Below, one piece after another: positions 2,893 through 16,855 of a stretch of 20,401 nucleotides of DNA (the stretch's first letter is position 1; each line of letters begins with the position of its first letter). The DNA lies in IMG/VR virus record IMGVR_UViG_2513237219_000003; one strand, given 5' to 3'. Made by a program: the position numbers and the translations under genes. The notes beneath the pieces were generated by a model. It was not told the origin of the DNA and did no database searches. It saw only the letters and a list, made by a program, of their open reading frames with translations. The stretch comes from a virus. Taxonomy: Duplodnaviria; Heunggongvirae; Uroviricota; Caudoviricetes.

Positions 2893-2902
2893 TTATCATC
2901 TC

Positions 2903-2930
2903 CATAAAACAAAACTCGCCGTAGCGAGTT
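2903..2930 (-). terminator. Intrinsic-terminator-like hairpin downstream of the 142-aa gene and IS1-A (minus-strand sense)
   Basis: 7-bp stem AACTCGC/GCGAGTT with 4-nt loop, followed on the minus strand by a U-rich tract (TTTGTTTTAT). Confidence 0.45.
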
Positions 2931-3031
2931 CAGATATAATTTCCACCAAAGGCAGTAGTTGCTGATGCTAAGAATTGGTGATGCTGCCAACTTACTGATT
3001 TAGTGTATGATGGTGTTTTTGAGGTGCTCCA

Positions 3032-3307
3032 GTGGCTTCTGTTTCTATCAGCTGTCCCTCCTGTTCAGCTACTGACGGGGTGGTGCGTAACGGCAAAAGC
3101 ACTGCCGGACATCAGCGCTATCTCTGCTCTCACTGCCGTAAAACATGGCAACTGCAGTTCACTTACACCGCTTCTCAACCCGGTACGCACCAGAAAATCA
3201 TTGATATGGCCATGAATGGCGTTGGATGCCGGGCAACCGCCCGCATTATGGGCGTTGGCCTCAACACGATTTTCCGCCATTTAAAAAACTCAGGCCGCAG
3301 TCGGTAA
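3032..3307 (+). CDS. insA: IS1 InsA (copy A), 91 aa
   Basis: Translation matches IS1 InsA; the A6C slippery motif TTAAAAAAC for the InsAB' -1 frameshift lies at about 3281..3289. Confidence 0.9.
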
Positions 3308-3729
3308 CCTCGCGCATACAGCCGGGCAGTGACGTCATCGTCTGCGCGGAAATGGACGAACAGTGGGGATACGTCGGGGCTAAATCGCGCCAGCGCTGGC
3401 TGTTTTACGCGTATGACAGGCTCCGGAAGACGGTTGTTGCGCACGTATTCGGTGAACGCACTATGGCGACGCTGGGGCGTCTTATGAGCCTGCTGTCACC
3501 CTTTGACGTGGTGATATGGATGACGGATGGCTGGCCGCTGTATGAATCCCGCCTGAAGGGAAAGCTGCACGTAATCAGCAAGCGATATACGCAGCGAATT
3601 GAGCGGCATAACCTGAATCTGAGGCAGCACCTGGCACGGCTGGGACGGAAGTCGCTGTCGTTCTCAAAATCGGTGGAGCTGCATGACAAAGTCATCGGGC
3701 ATTATCTGAACATAAAACACTATCAATAA
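3226..3729 (+). CDS. insB: IS1 InsB frame (copy A); expressed as an InsAB' fusion by -1 frameshifting
   Basis: Translation matches the IS1 InsB frame; overlaps insA in the -1 frame. Confidence 0.9.
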
Positions 3730-3751
3730 GTTGGGAGTCATTACCTAAGAA

Positions 3752-4180
3752 TTATTCAATATCTATTCCTGTAATATCTTTTATCTTTTTCCTTGCAAAG
3801 CCTTTTGCTAGTGATTTTGAAACACTTATTAGTGTACTAATTCCCTCATCCTTAAAGTTTGTTTTTATAGTTTGCCAGACCTCCTTTTGACGCAAGTCAG
3901 CAATAAAATCATGCCCTCTTGCTGTCAACCTCAGTGGTACTTCGATCCAACTATATCCAACACCTTCCCCTAACTCGTTGGACATTATATGACCGAACCC
4001 AGGTTTTCCATCAACCCTGACTATTAATTCGTAGTCGCATAATAATCGCATATGGAAAATAAAATTTTGGTCATATCTATTAAAGCCATTATCCTCTAGT
4101 TCACTAAGCATCGTGTCAGGGCCATGAGTTTTTTCGAATGCGATAAGTAGATCTTTTAGATATTGCTGGTCTAATTTCAT
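3752..4180 (-). CDS. Hypothetical 142-aa protein with a winged-helix-like N-terminus (DUF2513-like by motif recall); accessory gene in the ea8.5/ea22 position
   Basis: Intact ORF with GGAGG Shine-Dalgarno 6 nt upstream; motif LTARGHDFIADLRQKEVWQTIK resembles the conserved GH-F...R...VW core recalled for DUF2513 proteins; AT-rich codon usage; no lambda counterpart recognised. Confidence 0.6.
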   Translation of the reverse strand: MKLDQQYLKDLLIAFEKTHGPDTMLSELEDNGFNRYDQNFIFHMRLLCDYELIVRVDGKPGFGHIMSNELGEGVGYSWIEVPLRLTARGHDFIADLRQKEVWQTIKTNFKDEGISTLISVSKSLAKGFARKKIKDITGIDIE

Positions 4181-4208
4181 TGCCGCCTCCGTGACATGTC
4201 ACAGAGAT

Positions 4209-4547
4209 TTATATCATTAATTTTGTTTCGTGCCAGCCTTTGGTCACCCAGCATTGTGAGTCACCATTACACGGGCATGAATTAACAGGAACTCTCTCGC
4301 CGCACTTACCGCAACGTTTTCTGCTGATCGATTTTATACGCCAGCGCACACGTGCATCATCCTGGCGGCTCAGTAACGCGATGTACTCACCAAACTCGTA
4401 AGGCGCATGCCTGAAGCGGCGCGTGGCTCAGTTACGATCCAGCATTTCAATTTCCTGAGCATCAAGTACAAGCTCCAGCTTACGCATACCGGATGATGCT
4501 TGCTTGGCTCTCTGATCGACTTTGCGCTCTGCTGATGATTTAGCCAT
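4209..4547 (-). pseudogene. 112-codon zinc-finger-like ORF interrupted by a single in-frame TGA at codon 40 (4428..4430); possibly Ea8.5-like
   Basis: Manual translation MAKSSAERKVDQRAKQASSGMRKLELVLDAQEIEMLDRN-stop-ATRRFRHAPYEFGEYIALLSRQDDARVRWRIKSISRKRCGKCGERVPVNSCPCNGDSQCWVTKGWHETKLMI; CxxC...CxC motif; ends 28 nt upstream of the 142-aa gene start. Confidence 0.4.
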
Positions 4548-4743
4548 TCTGCTTTTCCTGCATTAGGAGAAAGACAATCATGGCGGCGCGGATACTTCCG
4601 GTATCTTTTTACTCGATATTACCCTTCAATGGCACATACAAGAAGAGAGCCATCAACAGGAGTGAGTGAGGAATCGACAACCAGCAACGCTTAATTATCT
4701 ATAGTGTCGTATTTGCTTCATAAAATATGGCGAATAACACAAA

Positions 4744-4775
4744 GCCCGCAGCAGCTCATTGTGCGGGCTTTTCTT
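4744..4775. terminator. Terminator-like hairpin (GCCCGCA / TGCGGGC stem) with flanking T and A tracts; strand ambiguous
   Basis: Perfect 7-bp GC-rich stem with 11-nt loop followed by TTTTCTT on the plus strand and preceded by AAA; lies between the truncated gene at 4841..5298 and the zinc-finger-like ORF. Confidence 0.45.
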
Positions 4776-4840
4776 ATACATACTTCCTAGAGATAATTCT
4801 ATGGAGGCATTAAATTAATACTGTCATTGGTAATATCATA

Positions 4841-5298
4841 TTATCTAAAAGTCTTTCCACTTTTAACGTCTAGGTATATTCTGTTCGACAACGTCATTCC
4901 TCCGCAATATGTGAAATAGATGTTTTTCCCCTTATTGCTTGATGCCATCCACCCTCCGATTTCCTTAAAGTCGCTTTCCGTGCAGACCCCTTCGTTTATT
5001 AACTTCCTAGCTGCCGAAGAAAACTCTTTTTTGTATATACGGTAGTCATCAGATCCTTTGATTAAAGTATCATCTCCGCTCGCATTTTCAGCAGGATCTG
5101 ATGGCCTTTCACTGCTAAGATCACTAAGTTTAACCCATTCTGAAAACTTGCCATTGACGATTCCGTTTTTTCTTGTGCAGGATTTATTACCTTCTTTAAT
5201 ATATTCGCTTTCCCCTCCCACACATGAGGCTGAATATGGCTCAGTTATACGAACCCATTCACCTTTTTTTTCTAGAAAATCTACGCCTTCCCTGAAAA
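4841..5298 (-). pseudogene. C-terminal fragment of an unknown protein; N-terminus removed at the IS1-B boundary
   Basis: Reading frame stays open from 5221 up to the IS1-B end at 5298 (…FREGVDFLEKKGEWVRITEPYSASCVGGESEY…) with no start codon before the IS; lysine-rich and AT-rich; no recognised family. Confidence 0.5.
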
Positions 5299-5313
5299 GG
5301 TAATGACTCTAAC

Positions 5314-5817
5314 TTATTGATAGTGTTTTATGTTCAGATAATGCCCGATGACTTTGTCATGCAGCTCCACCGATTTTGAGAACGACAGCGACTTCCGTCC
5401 CAGCCGTGCCAGGTGCTGCCTCAGATTCAGGTTATGCCGCTCAATTCGCTGCGTATATCGCTTGCTGATTACGTGCAGCTTTCCCTTCAGGCGGGATTCA
5501 TACAGCGGCCAGCCATCCGTCATCCATATCACCACGTCAAAGGGTGACAGCAGGCTCATAAGACGCCCCAGCGTCGCCATAGTGCGTTCACCGAATACGT
5601 GCGCAACAACCGTCTTCCGGAGCCTGTCATACGCGTAAAACAGCCAGCGCTGGCGCGATTTAGCCCCGACATAGCCCCACTGTTCGTCCATTTCCGCGCA
5701 GACGATGACGTCACTGCCCGGCTGTATGCGCGAGGTTACCGACTGCGGCCTGAGTTTTTTAAGTGACGTAAAATCGTGTTGAGGCCAACGCCCATAATGC
5801 GGGCTGTTGCCCGGCAT
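5314..5817 (-). CDS. insB: IS1 InsB frame (copy B)
   Basis: Translation matches IS1 InsB. Confidence 0.9.
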
Positions 5818-6011
5818 CCAACGCCATTCATGGCCATATCAATGATTTTCTGGTGCGTACCGGGTTGAGAAGCGGTGTAAGTGAACTGCAGTTGCCATGT
5901 TTTACGGCAGTGAGAGCAGAGATAGCGCTGATGTCCGGCGGTGCTTTTGCCGTTACGCACCACCCCGTCAGTAGCTGAACAGGAGGGACAGCTGATAGAA
6001 ACAGAAGCCAC
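5736..6011 (-). CDS. insA: IS1 InsA (copy B)
   Basis: Translation matches IS1 InsA. Confidence 0.9.
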
Positions 6012-6066
6012 TGGAGCACCTCAAAAACACCATCATACACTAAATCAGTAAGTTGGCAGCATCACC

Positions 6067-6283
6067 CCATCAGCGTTACCGTTTCGCGGTGCTTCTTCAG
6101 TACGCTACGGCAAATGTCATCGACGTTTTTATCCGGAAACTGCTGTCTGGCTTTTTTGATTTCAGAATTAGCCTGACGGGCAATGCTGCGAAGGGCGTTT
6201 TCCTGCTGAGGTGTCACTGAACAAGCCCCATGTCGGCAAGCATAAGCACACAGAATATGAAGCCCGCTGCCAGAAAAATGCAT
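6067..6283 (-). pseudogene. Lambda orf61-region ORF, 3'-truncated by IS1 copy B
   Basis: Frame ...VTPQQENALRSIARQANSEIKKARQQFPDKNVDDICRSVLKKHRETVTLMG runs straight into the IS1 end, with its stop supplied by IS1 sequence; lies in the orf61 position upstream of orf63. True start uncertain. Confidence 0.4.
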
Positions 6284-6293
6284 TCAGTGGTTG

Positions 6294-6485
6294 TCATACC
6301 TGGTCTCTCTCATCTGCTTCTGCTTTCGCCACCATCATTTCCAGTTTTTGTGAAAGGGATGTGGCTAACGTATGAAATTCTTCGTCTGTTTCTACTGGTA
6401 TTGGCACAAACCTGATTCCAATTTGAGCAAGGCTATGTGCCATCTCGATACTCGTTCTTAACTCAACAGGAGATGCTTTGTGCAT
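6294..6485 (-). CDS. Lambda orf63-like protein, 63 aa
   Basis: Translation and length match lambda orf63 as recalled; 28-nt overlap with orf60a as in lambda. Confidence 0.75.
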   Translation of the reverse strand: MHKASPVELRTSIEMAHSLAQIGIRFVPIPVETDEEFHTLATSLSQKLEMMVAKAEADERDQV

Positions 6486-6640
6486 ACAGCCCCTCGTTTA
6501 TTATTTATCTCCTCAGCCAGCCGCTGTGCTTTCAGTGGATTTCGGATAACAGAAAGGCCGGGAAATACCCAGCCTCGCTTTGTAACGGAGTAGACGAAAG
6601 TGATTGCGCCTACCCGGATATTATCGTGAGGATGCGTCAT
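6458..6640 (-). CDS. Lambda orf60a-like protein, 60 aa
   Basis: Translation [60 protein letters not shown] matches lambda orf60a; start overlaps the exo stop (ATGA). Confidence 0.75.
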
Positions 6641-7317
6641 CGCCATTGCTCCCCAAATACAAAACCAATTTCAGCCAGTGCCTCGTCCATTTTTTCGATG
6701 AACACCGGCACCATCTCGTCAAAACTCGCCATGTACTTTTCATCCCGCTCAACCACGACATAATGCAGTCCTTCACGCTTCATACGCGGGTCATAGTTGG
6801 CAAAGTACCAGGCATCTTTTCGTGTCACCCACATGCTGTACTGCACCTGGGCCATGTAAGCCGACTTTATGGCCTCGAAACCACCGAGCCGGAACTTCAT
6901 GAAATCCCGGGAGGTAAACGGGCATTTCAGCTCAAGGCCATTGCCGTCACTGCATAAACCATCGGGAGAGCAGGCGGTGCGCATACTTTCGTCGCGATAG
7001 ATGATCGGGGATTCAGTAACATTCACGCCGGAAGTGAATTCAAACAGGGTTCTGGCGTCGTTCTCGTACTGTTTTCCCCATGCCAGCGCCTTAGCATTAA
7101 CTTCCGGAGCCACACCGGTGCAAACCTCAGCCAGCAGGGTGTGGAAGTAGGACATTTTCATGTCAGGCCACTTCTTTCCTGAGCGGGGCTTGGCTATCAC
7201 GTTGTGAACTTCTGAAGCGGTGATGACGCCGAGCCGTAATTTGTGCCATGCATCATCCCCCTGTTCGACAGCTCTCACGTCGATCCCGGTACGCTGCAGG
7301 ATAATGTCCGGTGTCAT
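6637..7317 (-). CDS. exo: Lambda exonuclease (Red-alpha), 226 aa
   Basis: Full-length translation matches lambda Exo; start overlaps the bet 3' end as in lambda. Confidence 0.95.
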
Positions 7318-7760
7318 GCTGCCACCTTCTGCTCAGTGGCTTTCTGTTTCAGGAATCCAAGAGCTTTCACTGCTTCGGCCTGTGTCAGTTCTGACGATGC
7401 GCGAATGTCGCGGCGAAATATCTGGGAACAGAGCGGCAATAAGTCGTCATCCCATGTTTTGTCCAGGGCAATCAGCAGAGTGTTAATCTCCTGCATGGTT
7501 TCATCGTTAACCGGAGTAATGTCGCGTTCCGGCTGACGTTCTGCGGTGTATGCGGTATTTTCGACAATGCGCTCGGCTTCATCCTTGTCATAGATACCAG
7601 CAAATCCGAAGGCCAGACGGGCACACTGAATCATGGCTTTATGCCGTAACATCCGTTTGGGATGCGACTGCCACGGCCCCGTAATTTCTCTGCCTTCGCG
7701 GGTTTTGAATGGTTCGCGGCGGCATTCATCCATCCACTCGGTAACGCAGATCGGATGATT
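7314..7760 (-). pseudogene. bet: bet (Red-beta) 3' fragment; 5' part deleted, junction at about 7760/7761
   Basis: Translation matches the C-terminal part of lambda Bet (…NHPICVTEWMDECRREPFKTREGREI… to the end); upstream frame hits a stop and unrelated sequence beyond 7760. Confidence 0.9.
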
Positions 7761-7795
7761 ACCGGTTCGCTACCAGGGAAGAACGGGAAGGAAAG

Positions 7796-7882
7796 GTGAG
7801 CACGAATCTGATTTTCAAGGAGTGTCGCCAGAGTGCCGCGATGAAGCGGGTGTTGGCATTTTATCGCGGCAATTTTCAATAG
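7796..7882 (+). CDS. Hypothetical 28-aa ORF just past the bet deletion junction
   Basis: GTG start preceded by GGAAGGAAAG; translation VSTNLIFKECRQSAAMKRVLAFYRGNFQ; may correspond to a small DLP12-type ORF upstream of ybcN, but that could not be confirmed. Confidence 0.2.
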   Translation: MSTNLIFKECRQSAAMKRVLAFYRGNFQ

Positions 7883-7919
7883 ACTATGTACATAAAAATA
7901 TCATTTTTTTAATACATGT

Positions 7920-8111
7920 CTAATTATTGGACGAAATTGGTTTTTGCTTTGGTTTAGTTAGCCTAGCAATCAAGCCAGAGGCAATAATGATGATCCAAGC
8001 AATTTGATGCAATGCTACTCCAATATAAGAACCTTTATAGATAATAAAGGCATAGATCGCTAGAAACGAAATAAATATCCATAACGAAAGTTGATAAATT
8101 TTGGCGCGCAT
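7920..8111 (-). CDS. Hypothetical small membrane protein (about 63 aa, two predicted transmembrane helices, basic C-terminal tail)
   Basis: ORF with internal ATG start (MRAKIYQLSLWIFISFLAIYAFIIYKGSYIGVALHQIAWIIIIASGLIARLTKPKQKPISSNN); the longer track ORF begins at a TTG; very AT-rich; weak Shine-Dalgarno. Confidence 0.3.
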   Translation of the reverse strand: MRAKIYQLSLWIFISFLAIYAFIIYKGSYIGVALHQIAWIIIIASGLIARLTKPKQKPISSNN

Positions 8112-8367
8112 ATTTAATCCAATCAATCAGAAAGACGAGTAATCATAGAGGTACTATCACCCGGGTAACTATTGCTATTATGAACGGATAGGATAGAGGC
8201 TTCAATAACATATGCATCAAGTATGATGGAATATGTAGGTGAAAATGACTTGTGTCAAATTTGTGGAAATGAGTACCATGTTTCTCTGAAATTGATGTCG
8301 TTAATGGCTAGTGATAGTGAACTTTTTTACTTTATAATTCCTTTGGTTATAACAATAAGGTAAATTT

Positions 8368-8928
8368 ATGAAGAAGATAATATTATTAGCCATGATTATT
8401 GGTTCTTTAACAGGTTGCGCTAGTGTGCCACCATTGAATTTTTCAACACCTAACGTGGGAGTTAGCCAGAAAAAAATAGATGCTGAAATTAAGTCATTAA
8501 CGGTATCACTTGCTCGTCCAGATGAGCAGAAAGGGGATATCACTGCTGGTATGGAGGCTATAACTCCAATTTGGCGTGAATCTTTGCAGGAAGCACTCGA
8601 CCGAATGACTATTTTTCGTGATAGTTCACCAAATACGGTTAGCTTAAATGTTAAAGTGTTGGCTCTTGACGTTCCTGCTTTTGGTGTTTCAATGACAACT
8701 AAAGCAATTGCAAGGTATGAAATAATCAACCGTGCGAATGGTGATATTATATATACGCAGGATATTGAGTCTACCGGTACTGTTCCAGCCAGTTACGCAT
8801 TCTACGGTATTGTTCGAGCACGCGAATCTGTTAATCGCGCGGTGCAAAACAACATAACGCAGTTCTTGCAAGCATTAGAAAGTGTTGATCTTTCTCGTCC
8901 AATGTTTCCTGTTAGGGTAGCTAAATGA
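8368..8928 (+). CDS. Hypothetical outer-membrane lipoprotein, 186 aa (first gene of a two-lipoprotein operon)
   Basis: ATG with AAGG Shine-Dalgarno 7 nt upstream; signal peptide MKKIILLAMIIGSLTGC with lipobox LTGC and Ala at +2; AT-rich; stop overlaps the start of the next gene (ATGA). Confidence 0.75.
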   Translation: MKKIILLAMIIGSLTGCASVPPLNFSTPNVGVSQKKIDAEIKSLTVSLARPDEQKGDITAGMEAITPIWRESLQEALDRMTIFRDSSPNTVSLNVKVLALDVPAFGVSMTTKAIARYEIINRANGDIIYTQDIESTGTVPASYAFYGIVRARESVNRAVQNNITQFLQALESVDLSRPMFPVRVAK

Positions 8929-9377
8929 AGCGATTATTCGTAATTGCTCCACTCTTAGTGTTGGTTGGATGCGCACAAAATATATCGCCAAATAGTTATT
9001 CTGTTGGCTCTGTGGGCATGGTTAATCGAACTATCGCTGGTACAGTTATTAGTGCTAGGGGGGTTGATATCAGTGGGACTTCCGCGTTAGGCGGGACTGC
9101 TGGGGCTGCCGTGGGGGCAACCGCTGGTTCTGCGCTTGGTGGGGGAGTTCGTTCTAATATCGTTGGTGCCGTTGGTGGTGCAGTCATTGGTGGTATTGCC
9201 GGGGCAGCAATCGAATCTTCAGCAACAAAACAAACAGGCATGGAATATGTTGTCGAAACTGAGAATGGGAATTTAATGACCATTGTTCAAGGCAAAGATC
9301 CGTTATTTACTCAAGGAAGTAAGGTCCTTGTTTTATACGGAAACCCTTCTCGCATAATAACAGACCCGCGTCACTAA
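8925..9377 (+). CDS. SlyB/Pcp-like glycine-zipper outer-membrane lipoprotein, 150 aa
   Basis: Lipobox LVGC; central Gly/Ala zipper (GTSALGGTAGAAVGATAGSALGGGVRSNIVGAVGGAVIGGIAGAAI) and C-terminal region laid out like E. coli SlyB as recalled; translationally coupled to the upstream lipoprotein gene. Confidence 0.8.
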   Translation: MKRLFVIAPLLVLVGCAQNISPNSYSVGSVGMVNRTIAGTVISARGVDISGTSALGGTAGAAVGATAGSALGGGVRSNIVGAVGGAVIGGIAGAAIESSATKQTGMEYVVETENGNLMTIVQGKDPLFTQGSKVLVLYGNPSRIITDPRH

Positions 9378-9567
9378 CATACCTTTTGATTTTGTAAAAT
9401 CAATTCGTAATAATAAAGTCATCGGAGCTTGAACAACTCCGGTGACTTCTGCGCTAAACGGGGACGTTTATGCGCACATACAATCCAAACTCTCTTCTCC
9501 CTTCACAGATGCAGAAATGCACCTGCGATTTTTTGCATCCAGCGTCTGACCTCTGCGGAGGTGAAGC

Positions 9568-10023
9568 GTGAACCTACCACAAGATGGCATCAAACTGCAT
9601 CGCGGTAACTTCACCGCTATCGGCCAGCAGATCCAGCCTTATCTGGAGGACGGAAAATGCTTTCGCATGGTGCTTAAACCGTGGCGTGAGAAACGCAGTC
9701 TTTCCCAGAATGCACTCAGCCACATGTGGTACAGCGAAATCAGTGAATACCTCATCAGCAGGGGGAAATCGTTCGCTACCGCAGCATGGGTAAAAGATGC
9801 TCTCAAACACACATACCTCGGTTATGAAACCAAGGACCTGGTTGATGTCGTAACCGGCGAAATCACTACTATCCAGTCGTTACGCCATACCTCCGATCTT
9901 GATACCGGAGAGATGTATATCTTCCTGTGTAAGGTTGAAGCCTGGGCGGTGAATATTGGCTGCCACCTGACTATTCCGCAGAGCTGCGAGTTCCAGCAGC
10001 TCCGCGACAAACAGGAGGCGTAA
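9568..10023 (+). CDS. ybcN: YbcN-family DLP12-type prophage protein, 151 aa
   Basis: Translation matches K-12 DLP12 YbcN as recalled; GTG start with GGAGGTGA Shine-Dalgarno. Confidence 0.9.
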
Positions 10024-10193
10024 TGGCTACACCGCTTATTCGTGTCATGAACGGACACATCTACAGAGTACCAAATCGTCGTAAGCGTAAACCGGAGCTG
10101 AAGCCTTCCGAAATACCAACACTGCTCGGATATACCGCCAGCCTGGTTGATAAAAAATGGTTGCGACTGGCAGCAAGGAGGAGTCATGGCTGA
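10023..10193 (+). CDS. ninE: NinE-family protein, 56 aa
   Basis: ATG overlapping the ybcN stop (TAATG); translation [56 protein letters not shown]; not in the ORF track (under 60 aa). Confidence 0.8.
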   Translation: MATPLIRVMNGHIYRVPNRRKRKPELKPSEIPTLLGYTASLVDKKWLRLAARRSHG

Positions 10194-10476
10194 TTTGAGA
10201 AAAGCAGCGCGTGGTCGGGAATGCCAGGTAAGAATCCCTGGCGTATGTAATGGCAACCCTGAAACGTCTGTACTGGCACATATCCGGCTGACTGGATTGT
10301 GCGGCACCGGTACGAAACCGCCAGACCTGATTGCCACCATTGCATGTTCTGCCTGCCACGACGAAATCGACCGCCGCACACATTTTGTCGATGCTGCATA
10401 TGCAAAAGAATGCGCGCTGGAAGGTATGGCGAGAACACAGGTTATCTGGCTGAAAGAGGGGGTTATTAAGGCGTGA
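10186..10476 (+). CDS. ybcO: YbcO (DUF1364) putative nuclease, 96 aa
   Basis: ATG at 10186 with AGGAGG Shine-Dalgarno; translation from [26 protein letters not shown]… matches DLP12 YbcO; Cys-rich motif; the longer track ORF starts upstream inside ninE. Confidence 0.85.
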
Positions 10477-10835
10477 ATACCTACAGCATCACATTACCCT
10501 GGCCTCCGAGCAATAATCGCTATTACCGCCATAATCGCGGGCGCACACACATCAGCGCAGAAGGGCAGGCATACCGCGATAACGTCACCCGAATCATTAA
10601 AAACGCAATGCTGGATATCGGCCTGGCTATGCCAGTGAAAATCCGTATTGAGTGCCACATGCCGGATCGCCGTCGCCGTGACCTGGATAATCTGCAAAAA
10701 GCCGCTTTTGACGCACTCACCAAAGCAGGTTTCTGGCTGGATGATGCTCAGGTCGTTGATTACCGCGTTGTGAAGATGCCTGTTACCAAAGGTGGGAGGC
10801 TGGAACTGACCATCACCGAAATGGGGAATGAATGA
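10473..10835 (+). CDS. rusA: RusA Holliday-junction resolvase, 120 aa
   Basis: Translation matches DLP12 RusA nearly residue for residue; GTG start overlapping the ybcO stop. Confidence 0.95.
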
Positions 10836-10972
10836 TGTTTGAGTTTAATATGGCAGAACTTCTTCGCCACCGCTGGATGCGCCTGCGCTTATATCGTTTC
10901 CCCAGTTCTGTTTTGACCGATTACCGAATACTGAGGAATTACGCCAAAACCCTGACAGGAGCAGGAGTATGA
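10832..10972 (+). CDS. ylcG: YlcG-like small protein, 46 aa
   Basis: ATG overlapping the rusA stop; translation [46 protein letters not shown]; position downstream of rusA as in DLP12. Confidence 0.7.
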
Positions 10973-11057
10973 AGTCAGAGATAACAATCAACTAATACTG
11001 TTTTATTGATTTTTGCTTGTAATTGGCGTTCTGGTCTGATTTTTGTGGAGTAAGTTG

Positions 11058-11441
11058 ATGCGTGATATTCAGATGGTTCTTGAGCGTTGGGGAGCGTGGG
11101 CGGCTAATAATCATGAAGATGTGACCTGGTCGTCCATTGCCGCCGGTTTTAAGGGATTAATTACTTCAAAAGTAAAATCTCGCCCGCAATGTTGTGACGA
11201 TGACGCGATGATCATTTGCGGGTGCATGGCCCGTCTGAAAAAGAACAACAGCGATTTGCACGATTTATTAGTAGATTATTATGTAGTCGGTATGACATTC
11301 ATGTCACTGGCAGGTAAGCATTGCTGCTCTGATGGTTATATCGGGAAAAGGTTACAGAAGGCTGAGGGTATAATTGAAGGGATGTTAATGGCATTAGATA
11401 TCCGGTTAGAGATGGATATCGTTGTTAATAACTCTAATTAA
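11058..11441 (+). CDS. quuD: Q-family late-gene antiterminator (phage-21 / DLP12 type), 127 aa
   Basis: Translation [24 protein letters not shown]… matches DLP12 QuuD as recalled; ATG with GTGGAG Shine-Dalgarno; Cys-rich zinc-binding region. Confidence 0.9.
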
Positions 11442-11468
11442 TATGCCAATTGTTTACTAAAAATTATT

Positions 11469-11492
11469 AAAAATGGGGCGTTGAGACGCCCC
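11469..11492 (-). terminator. Intrinsic terminator for the nmpC transcript (minus-strand sense)
   Basis: 6-bp GC stem GGGGCG/CGCCCC with 6-nt loop, followed on the minus strand by ATTTTT. Confidence 0.6.
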
Positions 11493-11629
11493 CAAAAATA
11501 AAGGGTAATATATAACAGAAGGTTTATATAGTTAGAAGCAAGGTTGTGCTCCTAAAGGAAGTGGCTTGAGGGAGCCACTTATATGTTGGGGAGGCAAAGC
11601 CTCCCGCAACATATCTTTTAGTAATCAAA
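11469..11629 (-). ncRNA. ipeX: Structured 3' region of the nmpC transcript; candidate IpeX-like small RNA
   Basis: About 160 nt between the nmpC stop and the terminator, holding two further perfect hairpins (GGGAGGC/GCCTCCC and AAGTGGCT/AGCCACTT). Assignment rests on recall that the IpeX sRNA lies just 3' of nmpC in DLP12. Confidence 0.4.
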
Positions 11630-12712
11630 TTAGAACTGGTAAACCATACCTACAGCAACGATATCATCGGTAGCAACGCCAGATGCTTTCGTGAAATCGC
11701 TCTTATCAATCAGGTTGATTTTGTAATCAACAAAAGTGGACATATTTTTGTTGAAGTAATAGGTTGCACCTACATCAATATATTCAACCAGGTCCTGATC
11801 ACCCCACGCACCCAAGTCTTTTCCTTTAGATTGCAGGTAAGCAACGGACGGACGCAGACCGAAGTCGAACTGATATTGTGCAACTACTTCGAAGTTTTGT
11901 GCTTTGTTGGCAATATGGTTATTACCAAAAACAGTCATGTTCTGGGTTTCAGAATAGGTGGTAGCCAGATAGATGTTGTTCGCATCATATTTCAGACCAG
12001 CTGCCCATACTTCAGCATTTTGACCAGATGCATTCAGGCTGTTGTTACCGTAGATAACCTGATTATTAGTGCGGTCAGATTTAGCATAGGTTGCACCTAC
12101 ACCGAATCCTTCATACTCATAAGTAGTGGAGAAACCGAAACCATCACCATTAGCTTCAGTTACGTCAGTGCGGTCATTTTTACCCTGATACTGAGCAGCA
12201 AAGTTCAGACCATCAACCAGACCAAAGAAGTCATTGTTACGATAAGTTGCAACACCTGTGGTGCGACCAGTCATGAATACATCTGTTTGGGTCCAGGTAT
12301 CGCCACCGAATTCTGGCAGAACGTCGGTCCATGCACCAATATCGTATGCTACACCGTAGTTACGGCCATAATCGATGGAGCCGTAGTCACCGAATTTCAG
12401 GCCAGCGAAGGCAAGACGGGTTTTATCTTTGGAGGAACCTTGAGATTCAGCGCGGTTGCCTTTGAATTCATATTCCCACTGACCGAAACCAGTCAGTTGA
12501 TCGTTGATTTGGGTTTCACCTTTGAAGCCAAGACGGGCATAAGTAGTATCACCATCATCTGCATCATTAGAGGAGAAGTAGTGCTTAGCATTAACTTTCC
12601 CGTACAGATCCAGCTTGTTACTGTCTTTATTATAAATTTCAGCTGCCTGAGCAGACATCGCCATCAGTACTGATGCAGCTACAGCAGAAATTGCCACTGT
12701 TAATTTTTTCAT
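11630..12712 (-). CDS. nmpC: NmpC/OmpD-family general porin, apparently intact (360 aa with signal peptide)
   Basis: Translation matches the NmpC/OmpC porin family with signal peptide [23 protein letters not shown] and C-terminal …VAVGMVYQF; the track ORF starts 20 codons upstream, but the MKKL start fits the signal peptide. Confidence 0.9.
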
Positions 12713-13139
12713 CGTGAGCCCTTTTTTTGAACTATTATTAAAAAATGATGTCACTGCGCGATAAATATTCATCTAATCAATGTGATTATTTCAAGATGTA
12801 AGTTTTGGTTTCTCATTTGATTTGTGAAGTAGATCTCTATTTTTATCTGAACTTTTTCTATCGAATCCTATTCATGGCTCTTGGCTGAATAAAAATAAAT
12901 CTATTAGCCAATTTATATTAATGGCTGTTATTTATAAGTGCTCTATAATTTGAAGATTCAATTTAAACCAGCTAAAAATAACGCTGGAAATTATTTGTTG
13001 GTTATTTGTTGAGATTTGCTTATGTATTTGTAGTGGTGTTTTCAATACTCGGTAGCATTCTCGCAAATATCATTTAGTGGTTTACGTACGTAAAAAATTG
13101 GTTATGCTGTTAAGAGTGGTTACTTCGTCACACAGCTTA

Positions 13140-13170
13140 AACCCGCCGTCGAGCGGGTTTTTCCATTTTT
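13140..13170 (+). terminator. Intrinsic terminator upstream of the lysis genes; candidate tR'-like site
   Basis: 7-bp stem AACCCGC/GCGGGTT with 6-nt loop followed by a T-rich tract (TTTTCCATTTTTT), about 130 nt upstream of essD. Confidence 0.55.
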
Positions 13171-13299
13171 TGAGTCTCGATATTAGCTGATAACCCAATA
13201 CCTGAGTTATTCACTGACTCCGAGTCTGTTACGTTTCTGCTTTTTTGCGATACGTTGTATTCCCTCAATTTACACCCGCTTTGTCTGCGAGGTGGGGTT

Positions 13300-13515
13300 A
13301 TGAAATCCATGGATAAGTTAACAACGGGTGTCGCCTATGGCACCTCAGCAGGTAGTGCCGGTTACTGGTTTTTACAGCTGCTCGATAAAGTCACGCCCTC
13401 ACAGTGGGCAGCAATAGGTGTGCTGGGTAGCCTGGTATTTGGCCTGCTGACGTACCTGACAAACCTTTATTTCAAGATTAAAGAAGATAAGCGCAAGGCT
13501 GCGAGAGGTGAATAA
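13300..13515 (+). CDS. essD: S21-type class II holin (pinholin) with dual-start motif, 71 aa
   Basis: Translation [71 protein letters not shown] matches phage-21 S / DLP12 EssD; Met1 and Met4 fit antiholin/holin dual starts; strong Shine-Dalgarno. Confidence 0.9.
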
Positions 13516-14012
13516 TGCCTCCATCATTACGAAAAGCCGTTGCTGCTGCTATTGGTGGCGGAGCAATTGCTATAGCATCAGTGTTAATTACTGGCCCAAG
13601 TGGTAACGATGGTCTGGAAGGTGTCAGCTACGTACCATACAAAGATATCGTTGGCGTATGGACTGTATGTCACGGACACACCGGAAAAGACATCATGCTC
13701 GGTAAAACGTATACCAAAGCAGAATGCAAAGCACTCTTGAATAAAGACCTTGCCACTGTCGCCAGACAAATTAACCCGTACATCAAAGTCGATATACCGG
13801 AAACAACGCGCGGCGCTCTTTACTCATTCGTTTACAACGTGGGTGCTGGCAATTTCAGAACATCGACGCTTCTTCGCAAAATAAACCAGGGCGATATCAA
13901 AGGCGCATGTGATCAGCTACGTCGCTGGACATATGCTGGCGGTAAGCAATGGAAAGGTCTCATGACTCGTCGTGAGATTGAGCGTGAAATCTGTTTGTGG
14001 GGTCAGCAATGA
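13515..14012 (+). CDS. rrrD: SAR endolysin (lysozyme, R21 type), 165 aa
   Basis: Translation matches DLP12 RrrD; N-terminal Gly/Ala-rich signal-arrest-release segment; start overlaps the essD stop (TAATG). Confidence 0.95.
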
Positions 14013-14470
14013 ACAGAGTAACCGCGATTATCTCCGCTCTGGTTATCTGCATCATCGTCTACCTGTCATGGGCTGTTAATCATTACCGTGATAACGCCAT
14101 TACCTACAAAGCCCAGCGCGACAAAAATGCCAGAGAACTGAAGCTGGCGAACGCGGCAATTACTGACATGCAGATGCGTCAGCGTGATGTTGCTGCGCTC
14201 GATGCAAAATACACGAAGGAGTTAGCTGATGCGAAAGCTGAAAATGATGCTCTGCGTGATGATGTTGCCGCTGGTCGTCGTCGGTTGCACATCAAAGCAG
14301 TCTGTCAGTCAGTGCGTGAAGCCACCACCGCCTCCGGCGTGGATAATGCAGCCTCCCCCCGACTGGCAGACACCGCTGAACGGGATTATTTCACCCTCAG
14401 AGAGAGGCTGATCACTATGCAAAAACAACTGGAAGGAACCCAGAAGTATATTAATGAGCAGTGCAGATAG
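14009..14470 (+). CDS. rzpD: Rz-type inner-membrane spanin, 153 aa
   Basis: Translation from [29 protein letters not shown]… matches DLP12 RzpD; N-terminal transmembrane helix; ATGA overlap with rrrD. Confidence 0.9.
14229..14411 (+). CDS. rzoD: Rz1-type outer-membrane lipoprotein spanin, nested in the +1 frame of rzpD, 60 aa
   Basis: Translation [24 protein letters not shown]…PPPPP… with lipobox VVGC and proline-rich region; wholly embedded in rzpD. Confidence 0.85.
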
Positions 14471-14501
14471 AGTTGCCCATATCGATGGGCAACTCATGCA
14501 A

Positions 14502-14795
14502 TTATTGTGAGCAATACACACGCGCTTCCAGCGGAGTATAAATGCCTAAAGTAATAAAACCGAGCAATCCATTTACGAATGTTTGCTGGGTTTCTGTTTT
14601 AACAACATTTTCTGCGCCGCCACAAATTTTGGCTGCATCGACAGTTTTCTTCTGCCCAATTCCAGAAACGAAGAAATGATGGGTGATGGTTTCCTTTGGT
14701 GCTACTGCTGCCGGTTTGTTTTGAACAGTAAACGTCTGTTGAGCACATCCTGTAATAAGCAGGGCCAGCGCAGTAGCGAGTAGCATTTTTTTCAT
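14502..14795 (-). CDS. borD: Bor-family lipoprotein (serum-resistance-associated), 97 aa
   Basis: Translation matches lambda Bor / DLP12 BorD; lipobox ITGC. Confidence 0.9.
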   Translation of the reverse strand: MKKMLLATALALLITGCAQQTFTVQNKPAAVAPKETITHHFFVSGIGQKKTVDAAKICGGAENVVKTETQQTFVNGLLGFITLGIYTPLEARVYCSQ

Positions 14796-15085
14796 GGTGT
14801 TATTCCCGATGCTTTTTGAAGTTCGCAGAATCGTATGTGTAGAAAATTAAACAAACCCTAAACAATGAGTTGAAATTTCATATTGTTAATATTTATTAAT
14901 GTATGTCAGGTGCGATGAATCGTCATTGTATTCCCGGATTAACTATGTCCACAGCCCTGACGGGGAACTTCTCTGCGGGAGTGTCCGGGAATAATTAAAA
15001 ACGATGCACACAGGGTTTAGCGCGTACACGTATTGCATTATGCCAACGCCCCGGTGCTGACACGGAAGAAACCGGACGTTATGAT

Positions 15086-15538
15086 TTAGCGTGGAAAGAT
15101 TTGTGTAGTGTTCTGAATGCTCTCAGTAAATAGTAATGAATTATCAAAGGTATAGTAATATCTTTTATGTTCATGGATATTTGTAACCCATCGGAAAACT
15201 CCTGCTTTAGCAAGATTTTCCCTGTATTGCTGAAATGTGATTTCTCTTGATTTCAACCTATCATAGGACGTTTCTATAAGATGCGTGTTTCTTGAGAATT
15301 TAACATTTACAACCTTTTTAAGTCCTTTTATTAACACGGTGTTATCGTTTTCTAACACGATGTGAATATTATCTGTGGCTAGATAGTAAATATAATGTGA
15401 GACGTTGTGACGTTTTAGTTCAGAATAAAACAATTCACAGTTTAAATCTTTTCGCACTTGATCGAATATTTCTTTAAAAATGGCAACCTGAGCCATTGGT
15501 AAAACCTTCCATGTGATACGAGGGCGCGTAGTTTGCAT
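15086..15538 (-). CDS. ybcV: YbcV-family (DUF1398) protein; start uncertain
   Basis: Translation …[38 protein letters not shown]… matches DLP12 YbcV as recalled; the track ORF runs to 15619; candidate starts at 15538 or 15496. Confidence 0.8.
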
Positions 15539-15781
15539 TATCGTTTTTATCGTTTCAATCTGGTCTGACCTCTTTGTGTTTTGTTGATGATTTATGTCAA
15601 ATATTAGGAATGTTTTCACTTAATAGTATTGGTTGCGTAACAAAGTGCGGTCCTGCTGGCATTCTGGAGGGAAATACAACCGACAGATGTATGTAAGGCC
15701 AACGTGCTCAAATCTTCATACAGAAAGATTTGAAGTAATATTTTAACCGCTAGATGAAGAGCAAGCGCATGGAGCGACAAA

Positions 15782-15988
15782 ATGAATAAAGAACAATCTG
15801 CTGATGATCCCTCCGTGGATCTGATTCGTGTAAAAAATATGCTTAATAGCACCATTTCTATGAGTTACCCTGATGTTGTAATTGCATGTATAGAACATAA
15901 GGTGTCTCTGGAAGCATTCAGAGCAATTGAGGCAGCGTTGGTGAAGCACGATAATAATATGAAGGATTATTCCCTGGTGGTTGACTGA
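15782..15988 (+). CDS. ybcW: YbcW-like small protein, 68 aa
   Basis: ORF of the expected length and position (divergent from ybcV); translation [68 protein letters not shown]. Confidence 0.7.
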
Positions 15989-16152
15989 TCACCATAACTG
16001 CTAATCATTCAAACTATTTAGCCTGTGACAGAGCCAACACGCAGTCTGTCACTGTCAGGAAAGTGGTAAAACTGCAACTCAATTACTGCAATGCCCTCGT
16101 AATTAAGTGAATTTACAATATCGTCCTGTTCGGAGGGAAGAACGCGGGATGT

Positions 16153-16347
16153 TCATTCTTCATCACTTTTAATTGATGTATATGCTCTCTTTTCTGACGT
16201 TAGTCTCCGACGGCAGGCTTCAATGACCCAGGCTGAGAAATTCCCGGACCCTTTTTGCTCAAGAGCGATGTTAATTTGTTCAATCATTTGGTTAGGAAAG
16301 CGGATGTTGCGGGTTGTTGTTCTGCGGGTTCTGTTCTTCGTTGACAT
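16153..16347 (-). CDS. ylcI: YlcI-like (DUF3950) small protein, 64 aa
   Basis: Translation MSTKNRTRRTTTRNIRFPNQMIEQINIALEQKGSGNFSAWVIEACRRRLTSEKRAYTSIKSDEE; basic N-terminus and ribbon-helix-helix-like core. Confidence 0.65.
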   Translation of the reverse strand: MSTKNRTRRTTTRNIRFPNQMIEQINIALEQKGSGNFSAWVIEACRRRLTSEKRAYTSIKSDEE

Positions 16348-16546
16348 GAGGTTGCCCCGTATTCAGTGTCGCTGATTTGTATTGTCTGAAGTTGTTTTTA
16401 CGTTAAGTTGATGCAGATCAATTAATACGATACCTGCGTCATAATTGATTATTTGACGTGGTTTGATGGCGTAGATGCACGTTGTGACATGTAGATGATA
16501 ATTATTATCATTTTGCGGGTCCTTTCCGGCGATCCGACAGGTTACG

Positions 16547-16558
16547 GGGCGGCGACCT
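16547..16558. other. Lambda cosN cohesive-end sequence (GGGCGGCGACCT), with cosB/Nu1-binding region following to about 16735
   Basis: Exact 12-nt lambda cohesive end preceded by the lambda right-end sequence …CCGACAGGTTACG and followed by lambda left-end sequence CGCGGGTTTTCGCTATTTATGAAAATTTTCCGG…. Confidence 0.85.
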
Positions 16559-16735
16559 CGCGGGTTTTCGCTATTTATGAAAATTTTCCGGTTTAAGGCG
16601 TTTCCGTTCTTCTTCGTCATAACTTAATGTTTTTATTTAAAATACCCTCTGAAAAGAAAGGAAGCGACAGGTGCTGAAAGCGAGCTTTTTGGCCTCTGTC
16701 GTTTCCTTTCTCTGTTTTTGTCCGTGGAATGAACA

Positions 16736-16795
16736 ATGGAAGTCAACAAAAAGCAGCTGGCTGACATTTTCGGTGCGAGTATAAGTTCTGATTAG
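16736..16795 (+). pseudogene. nu1: nu1 (terminase small subunit) remnant: first 16 codons only, then deletion junction at about 16782/16783
   Basis: MEVNKKQLADIFGASI matches the lambda Nu1 N-terminus; the frame then diverges and stops after 3 more codons; downstream sequence looks like the last codons of lom plus its terminator. Confidence 0.8.
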
Positions 16796-16818
16796 CCAGG
16801 TAACACAGTGTTATGACA

Positions 16819-16844
16819 GCCCGCCGGTTCAGGCGGGCTTTTTT
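16819..16844 (+). terminator. Intrinsic terminator (GCCCGCC / GGCGGGC stem plus T6) upstream of stf; probable lom terminator
   Basis: Perfect 7-bp GC-rich stem, 6-nt loop, TTTTTT run. Confidence 0.7.
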
Positions 16845-16855
16845 GTGGGGTGAAT

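Follow-up and report, generated by a model that had tools for sequence, protein, structure and literature searches.

The viral record IMGVR_UViG_2513237219_000003, a stretch of 20,401 nt that is referred to here as the window, consists of Escherichia coli chromosomal DNA and carries a defective lambdoid prophage, which lies beside ybhC and has DLP12-like late genes. The subject of this analysis is an AT-rich cassette within this prophage together with the two lipoprotein genes encoded on it, which are termed A and B. Their positions in the window are as follows:

8368-8928, plus strand: gene A, encoding a predicted outer-membrane lipoprotein of 186 amino acids (Cys17, Ala at position +2)
8925-9377, plus strand: gene B, encoding a SlyB-family glycine-zipper lipoprotein of 150 amino acids (Cys16, Ala at position +2)
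7856-9383, no strand assigned: foreign cassette (moron) of 1528 bp with a GC (guanine plus cytosine) content of 0.398, located in the slot between ren and ninB/ylcH

Genes A and B overlap by an ATGA at positions 8925-8928. In both proteins, a short basic and hydrophobic signal precedes the lipobox; in A this is LTGC and Cys17 is followed by Ala, and in B the lipobox LVGC ends in Cys16, which is again followed by Ala in place of a retention residue. A sequence-only reading of this stretch had already described two overlapping plus-strand lipoprotein genes with these lipoboxes and no Asp at position +2, and both its coordinates and its lipoboxes proved correct. Homologues of A were scanned in one genome per species, which resulted in 80 loci, and in 61 of these B is located directly downstream of A on the same strand. 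The hosts are Enterobacterales, Xanthomonadales, Burkholderiales and Alphaproteobacteria and hence represent the Gamma-, Beta- and Alphaproteobacteria. A 4-nt overlap (ATGA, GTGA or TTGA) was identified at 46 of the 61 junctions and a 1-nt overlap (TAATG) at three, which amounts to overlapping start and stop codons in 49 pairs. The lipobox cysteine of both proteins is retained in all 58 cleanly extracted pairs, the pairwise identities of A and B are correlated (r = 0.85), and dN for the pair ranges from 0.11 to 0.29 with dS being saturated. In addition, the family of A (512 clusters) and the B subfamily (581 homologue clusters) differ little in size, and A lies upstream of B in every B context sampled. 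All-against-all clustering of the neighboring open reading frames (ORFs) in the 80 loci revealed no third conserved gene; what recurred were antisense shadows of the A and B reading frames and nothing else. These observations show that A and B are coupled and form one conserved, jointly inherited unit. They support the translationally coupled two-lipoprotein operon of the sequence-only reading, and the co-occurrence elsewhere that it had counted on was indeed found.

The pair is not phage-specific. It exists amid ordinary chromosomal genes in Klebsiella oxytoca and in Stenotrophomonas, and its GC content matches that of the host in Klebsiella (0.50), Edaphovirga (0.45), Stenotrophomonas (0.63) and Xanthomonas (0.64), while it is foreign in E. 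coli. At one chromosomal locus (L095), an extra glycine-zipper lipoprotein gene (Rick_17kDa_Anti, positions 7078-7530) is oriented convergently to A-B. A literature search for the A-B pair yielded nothing, and both proteins fall into PHROGs of the category "unknown function" (A: phrog_12521, 413 bits; B: phrog_13877, 328 bits), in agreement with the earlier proposal that the system is undescribed.

Protein B is a lipoprotein of the SlyB family. Beyond its lipid anchor, it comprises a glycine-zipper membrane hairpin of two helices as well as a small beta domain. In a phmmer search of all PDB chains, residues 2-149 of B were aligned with residues 3-155 of SlyB (PDB 7ojf, E = 1.3e-14), and a Foldseek comparison with the PDB returned 7ojf_A as the sole significant match (E = 1.9e-8, probability 1.0, template-modelling (TM) scores of 0.60 and 0.64, all 138 target residues aligned). 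The suggestion that the second protein is SlyB-like therefore holds for its full length as well as for its fold. The AlphaFold2 model of B, which was built from 20 subfamily sequences, contains, besides a strand and a beta domain, a two-helix hairpin spanning residues 55-71 and 75-100. SlyB itself is a PhoPQ-regulated outer-membrane lipoprotein of E. coli and Salmonella (PDB 7ojf and 7ojg). Its alignment with B runs from end to end and the order of lipobox, beta strand, two-helix glycine-zipper hairpin and beta domain is shared, whereas the identity is only about 27% and slyB is a stand-alone core gene, unlike B, which is preceded by A, mobile and phage-borne. The B relatives that adjoin A match B at E-values of 1e-41 to 1e-70, much more strongly than SlyB, and therefore B belongs, as judged by sequence similarity, to a SlyB subfamily of its own. 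Many members of this subfamily carry PF13488 or PF05433 according to precomputed annotation, and the sources label it SlyB or glycine zipper. B also resembles YfgH, OsmB and YiaD, which are glycine-zipper lipoproteins with two transmembrane helices and proposed stabilisers of nanodomains of lipid and outer-membrane proteins; SlyB and YfgH are thought to form rings around such nanodomains in envelope stress (bioRxiv 10.64898/2025.12.22.696046). The match of B to this group is restricted to the zipper, as illustrated by a score of 12.7 bits against the NCBIfam model of YiaD, the cut-off of which is 175. To our knowledge, YfgH, OsmB and YiaD have not been reported with a dedicated partner gene.

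Protein A matches no Pfam or NCBIfam family. The family size given above refers to clusters at 90% identity, and searching exhaustively with a profile (E <= 1e-3) yielded 907 representatives at 50% identity. The AlphaFold2 model of A is confident, with a predicted local distance difference test (pLDDT) score of 81.3 and a predicted TM score of 0.76, and exhibits a beta-alpha-beta3-alpha sandwich, the alpha/beta fold of LptE, PqiC, PelC and the core of TraT. The lipoprotein family to which A belongs has no name, and on the basis of this model the globular domain of A has the LptE/PqiC/PelC/TraT-core fold. Comparison with the viral structures of BFVD gave weak matches only, namely a CsgG-like protein (E = 2e-4, low TM score) and Rad52/ERF-like proteins, the latter reflecting a generic sandwich in common. 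In sequence, A differs from proteins of the LptE, PqiC (DUF330), PelC and CsgG type, to which it is 7-14% identical, and none of the corresponding hidden Markov models (HMMs) recognizes the family except for one distant member that matches the LptE HMM at E = 0.018. A itself belongs neither to LptE (PF04390), with no sign of a partnership with LptD, nor to PqiC/DUF330, and it is not located in a pqiABC/mce operon. Likewise, among the neighboring ORFs clustered in the 80 loci, neither lptD nor pqiAB/mce, pel or csg was identified near A-B.

Two names are attached to A in databases, "UDP-N-acetylglucosamine acyltransferase" and "YajG family lipoprotein", the latter in RefSeq entries of recent date. 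A does share with YajG (PF03923/PRK11627) a similar length, the lipoprotein character and a weak N-terminal profile similarity, for which hhalign reports probabilities of 66-89% over 52-120 N-terminal columns, corresponding to the signal peptide and the first strand. Nevertheless, A fails the family HMMs: it has no PF03923 match at E <= 1, whereas a real YajG scores 176.8 bits, and PF03923 matches none of 38 diverse members of the A family. With PRK11627, A itself reaches 11.4 bits, the cut-off being 242. The gene yajG adjoins ampG, which is unlike the context of A.

The position of the cassette in the prophage was resolved by comparison with PhiR30_1 (47.4 kb), a deposited phage that carries both A and B at 100% identity. 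In this phage, the left part follows the order int...exo-bet-gam-kil...cI-cro-cII-O-P-ren, and downstream of ren come a small ORF on the minus strand, A, B, ninB-ybcO-rusA-ylcG-Q, a gene for a porin, S-R-Rz and bor. According to blastn, window positions 6483-7760 correspond to PhiR30_1 positions 2893-4169 and window positions 7758-16134 to PhiR30_1 positions 10541-18917. Consequently, the window differs by a single 6.4-kb deletion that joins bet' to 'ren and leaves the following remnant:

7758-7882, plus strand: C-terminal fragment of ren, the left end of which (about 7758-7760) is the deletion junction

The 5' part of bet, gam, kil, cI, cro, cII, O, P and the 5' part of ren were lost with this event. 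The RefSeq annotation is in keeping with it, as to the left of the AT-rich segment "protein ren, incomplete" abuts "RecT, missing N-terminus", a 5'-truncated recT/bet. The cassette itself is colinear with PhiR30_1 downstream of ren. Homology to DLP12 of strain K-12 ends at position 7855, inside ren, and restarts at position 9384, upstream of ylcH/ybcN, and the same slot in K-12 DLP12 is occupied by the 4070 bp of emrE-ylcJ-ybcK-ybcL-ybcM. The segment thus shows two features of a moron. It is an optional insert between backbone genes, with the A-B cassette found here and in PhiR30_1 and emrE-ybcM in DLP12, and its base composition is unlike that of the backbone (GC content of 0.398, with 0.322 in its upstream part, vs. 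0.477 in the remaining window). The sequence-only reading had interpreted the segment between 7883 and 9567 as a replacement of the immunity and replication region, with gam through P exchanged for the lipoprotein genes. An AT-rich segment unlike its flanks is indeed present (GC content of 0.31-0.41 over 7800-9000 vs. about 0.52 in the flanks), although the right border was set too far, as it includes about 180 bp of backbone, namely ylcH and sequence upstream of ybcN. The replacement itself has to be rejected: PhiR30_1 contains cI-cro-cII-O-P-ren upstream of an identical cassette, and the missing genes are explained by the separate deletion. Colinearity with an intact phage and the borders of the DLP12 slot thus identify the cassette as accessory cargo in the ren-ninB slot of an otherwise complete phage.

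Among 5426 complete E. coli genomes, the A-B pair was found in 280 (about 5%), in all cases on the chromosome and with at least 99% identity, while the flanking backbone exists in about 2970 E. coli genomes and the deletion junction in only 19 of the 5426. The reading frames of A and B are intact in 279 of the 280 carriers, though the surrounding prophages have decayed in differing ways. The near-clonal pair in 280 genomes and the rarity of the junction therefore lead to the conclusion that the cassette rides a single, differently decaying prophage lineage. According to these figures, the pair is accessory in E. coli.

Outside this lineage, the pair was found at several further positions in temperate phages. 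The nearest relatives of A beyond E. coli (87, 77, 72 and 70% identity) are all located on phage contigs, where an inserted A-B separates the tape-measure gene from gpM. The carriers of this arrangement possess tail modules of two different types, and a search started from B homologues gives the same picture. A Salmonella lambdoid prophage contains an intact pair, with A being 72% identical, in a nin-like region, surrounded by toxin-antitoxin modules and upstream of ybcO-Q. The nin-like region with A-B in the Salmonella enterica prophage (L144, positions 3388-10580) is dense with YdaS/YdaT, ParE/PaaA2, PemK/MazE-like, YoeB/Phd and HigB genes, and this toxin-antitoxin region looks like a cargo hotspot of the Salmonella prophage. 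A is encoded on 47 viral contigs of IMG/VR, and B accompanies it on 34 of these. Genes that are expressed in lysogens usually sit beside the repressor gene, and at six loci the pair is found directly downstream of a gene for a CI-like repressor on the same strand, at a distance of about 50 nt (L121, positions 5259-7025, as well as L019, L056 and L123-L125). Four more loci show a convergent arrangement. The loci with the pair on the same strand as the repressor gene belong to Xanthomonadales-type prophages and one alphaproteobacterial prophage, and their organization suggests an operon analogous to cI-rexA-rexB of lambda. More divergent copies of A without B also occur as prophage cargo, some of them in tail modules: they separate gpK from gpI, immediately precede the tape-measure gene or are found close to integrase genes and holin-like genes. 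In total, phage genomes have acquired the pair independently at four or more positions, with further slots for solo A. Such recurrent capture by phages, often beside a repressor, fits an envelope module that is expressed from the prophage.

For the copy studied here, every phage promoter upstream of the cassette has been deleted in the window, and therefore any expression of A and B must originate inside the cassette. Two candidate elements precede gene A:

8311-8338, plus strand: candidate sigma-70 promoter, consisting of GTGATA (8311-8316), a 16-nt spacer and TATAAT (8333-8338), with 10 of 12 consensus matches
8357-8360, plus strand: Shine-Dalgarno-like AAGG, 7 nt before the ATG of A

The promoter ends 30 nt upstream of this ATG. 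The TATAAT at 8333-8338 had been pointed out in the sequence-only reading and is present as described, but the promoter is no more than a candidate, as sites of this kind occur at chance level (see below). The start region of A is unstructured (fold of 8339-8400, z = +0.89).

Taken together, we propose with moderate confidence that A and B constitute a mobile two-gene module that forms a SlyB-type hetero-oligomeric ring in the outer membrane and acts in lysogenic conversion, chiefly by conferring general envelope robustness. SlyB-type glycine-zipper lipoproteins have recently been recognized as organisers of nanodomains and have been studied as stand-alone, stress-induced host proteins. In the proposed mechanism, A and B would be synthesized at a fixed ratio and transferred to the outer membrane, where B would form a SlyB-type ring that corrals a lipid patch and/or outer-membrane proteins. 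The LptE-like domains of A may then dock on the B ring as a cap, an adaptor or a subunit that binds anionic lipid or glycan ligands. A comparable architecture is known from TraT, the surface-exclusion and serum-resistance lipoprotein of IncF plasmids (PDB 9e2v and 9fs5). TraT carries two membrane helices on an LptE-like core and assembles into a lipid-plugged decameric ring (PMC12658005), and it was originally a gene of the chromosome and was co-opted by plasmids and other mobile elements (PMC11733297). Neither by homology nor as a single chain with an LptE-like core and two transmembrane helices does A itself correspond to TraT. With A supplying the LptE-like core and B the two membrane helices, the pair would instead contain in two proteins what TraT contains in one chain, including the lipid-plugged ring, and it likewise represents a chromosomal set that was co-opted by mobile elements. 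Expressed from the prophage, the complex would alter the outer membrane to the benefit of the lysogen, and reduced access for phages might be one consequence. General envelope robustness is considered the likeliest effect because A is highly conserved across classes and across differently tailed phages, which points to a universal envelope target, and on the same grounds it is favored over receptor-specific exclusion. The sequence-only reading had suggested superinfection exclusion or envelope protection as the function of the pair, which is plausible.

Several observations weigh against this proposal. The likeness to TraT is weak for B (Foldseek E = 0.07) and exists for A at the level of the fold only. 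The monomer model of B is of moderate confidence (pLDDT of 62), and the glycine-zipper Pfam models PF05433 and PF13488 remain below their gathering thresholds, with 21.1 vs. 24.2 bits for one and 16.9 vs. 25 bits for the other. Promoter-like sites in the cassette are no more common than in shuffled sequences (6 vs. 5.0 +/- 2.4), and as an AT-rich island in E. coli, the cassette may be silenced by H-NS. Finally, A occurs without B in 19 of the 80 genomes and in 13 of the 47 viral contigs and can thus function alone or with another partner.

The foremost alternative, which we regard as possible but unlikely, is dedicated superinfection exclusion. In this scenario, A-B would ring or plug an outer-membrane receptor or block the passage of DNA, in the way that Cor and Llp inactivate FhuA, with the lysogen being protected and progeny phage being spared adsorption to debris. 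Positions within tail modules and beside repressor genes are typical of exclusion genes, and the pair is found in temperate phages at both, between tape measure and gpM as well as next to repressors. Rings of SlyB around outer-membrane proteins are known (PDB 7ojf is a complex of SlyB13 with BamA), the fold of A is that of LptE, the plug of a beta-barrel, and the surface-exclusion protein TraT shares its core fold with A (PMC12658005). As lipoprotein or outer-membrane cargo between conserved phage genes, A-B also resembles Bor, Lom, Cor and Llp, which are expressed from the prophage, and the copies directly downstream of repressor genes recall cI-rexAB of lambda. However, no sequence or family relation to Bor, Lom, Cor, Llp or RexAB exists, A-B is a two-component system, and it is widespread on chromosomes outside phages, where many copies have host-matched GC content. 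Searches of Pfam, PHROGs and PADLOC linked the pair neither to Cor or Llp nor to a defence model of any kind, with neither protein matching a Pfam or PADLOC family. In addition, A and B are 60-87% identical between host classes, and near-identical pairs exist in phages with different tail modules. Blockers that are specific for a receptor diversify along with it, and the very high conservation of A across classes therefore argues against a blocker of the Cor/Llp type.

Somewhat more doubtful is a broader form of exclusion, in which A-B would act as a "split TraT/SlyB", a two-component ring that temperate phages of many Proteobacteria would deploy from the prophage to sequester a conserved part of the outer membrane and thereby exclude incoming phages irrespective of their receptor. 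Its targets might be BamA, LptD, porins or a patch of lipopolysaccharide or phospholipid, and conjugation or serum attack would possibly be blocked as well. If this applied, A-B would represent a new class of lysogenic conversion and exclusion systems and the first SlyB-type ring with a dedicated specificity subunit.

It appears improbable that A and B are ordinary envelope lipoproteins that hitch-hike neutrally with phages, bring no benefit to an E. coli lysogen and are perhaps silent there. The host-adapted chromosomal copies in Stenotrophomonas, Xanthomonas and Klebsiella, the promoter match at chance level and the heavy decay of the prophage in the window would agree with such a scenario, yet the repeated insertion of the pair into phage genomes, with further positions for solo A, is hard to explain neutrally, and the reading frames have stayed intact in the E. 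coli carriers despite the differing decay of their prophages. Even less support remains for the view that A and B are independent proteins, A being of the YajG type and B an extra copy of SlyB, with their adjacency reflecting co-regulation only. The RefSeq label of A, the frequency of solo A and the non-adjacent location of yajG and slyB in host genomes speak for it; the overlap of start and stop codons in most pairs, the correlated divergence, the matching family sizes, the upstream position of A in all sampled B contexts and the failure of A in the YajG HMMs speak against it. That A is a UDP-N-acetylglucosamine acyltransferase can practically be dismissed, because this name, though propagated through many NCBI and UniRef records and PhiR30_1, meets a protein with a lipoprotein signal peptide, without any LpxA, hexapeptide-repeat, Pfam or NCBIfam match, and with an LptE-like alpha/beta sandwich in place of a left-handed beta-helix. 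Two misleading database names for A, this one and "YajG family", are thereby corrected.

Returning to the favored two-gene module, its relevance lies in a distinct SlyB subfamily that is tied to a conserved partner of LptE-like fold and has hundreds of representative clusters in three proteobacterial classes. The operon comprises only 1 kb and is easily cloned, and it offers the opportunity to ask whether a partner gives specificity to SlyB rings and what a phage gains from remodelling the outer membrane of its lysogen. A further question concerns phage susceptibility as well as serum and antibiotic tolerance in the E. coli strains that carry the pair and in Salmonella and Klebsiella carriers.

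Two further features are found at the margins of the A-B genes:

7920-8126, minus strand: small hydrophobic ORF of 68 amino acids from a TTG, or 63 amino acids from an ATG at 8111, with two predicted transmembrane segments
9417-9447, plus strand: hairpin with an 11-bp stem, 40 nt past the stop codon of B

The small ORF is divergent from A, belongs to the AT-rich section at the upstream end of the cassette and had been overlooked in the sequence-only reading. It is annotated as hypothetical in PhiR30_1 and not annotated in RefSeq, its homologues are confined to E. coli (5 clusters), and it is absent from Klebsiella and the other A-B loci. No match was found in Pfam, NCBIfam, PHROGs or PADLOC, and it is at best a putative gene, which may encode a small membrane protein or may have arisen by chance in AT-rich DNA. 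The hairpin (fold of 9375-9465, -25.3 kcal/mol, z = -4.25) has no U-run and is located outside the cassette, in backbone shared with K-12 DLP12 between the cassette and ylcH/ybcN, and it might act as a tR2-like terminator or mark a processing site. An Rfam search of the cassette gave no RNA element at E <= 1.

Elsewhere in the window, the early-left region of the prophage carries two inverted copies of IS1 (2977-3732 and 5311-6066), whose 756-nt arms are 99% complementary. They enclose 1578 bp with a DUF2513 gene (3752-4180, minus strand) and an ORF of 126 amino acids (4841-5221, minus strand) in an arrangement that resembles a composite transposon. In the related strain JNQH498, the DUF2513 gene is present without annotated IS1 copies. 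Downstream of the Q antiterminator, an intact porin gene (11630-12772, minus strand) encodes 380 amino acids and matches Porin_1 with 510 bits, whereas its counterpart in JNQH498 is a pseudogene with an internal stop. The decayed prophage thus keeps three outer-membrane cargo modules, namely A-B, the porin and bor. Finally, a tail-fibre ORF at positions 16850-19819 comprises phage_tail_N, Phage_fiber_2 repeats and Collar, has a GC content of 0.60-0.63 with a strong skew of A over T, and contains three 132-nt tandem repeats at positions 18231-18626. In a related strain, as annotated in RefSeq, this ORF follows a truncated nu1 packaging gene, which indicates that the head and tail-shaft genes have been deleted.

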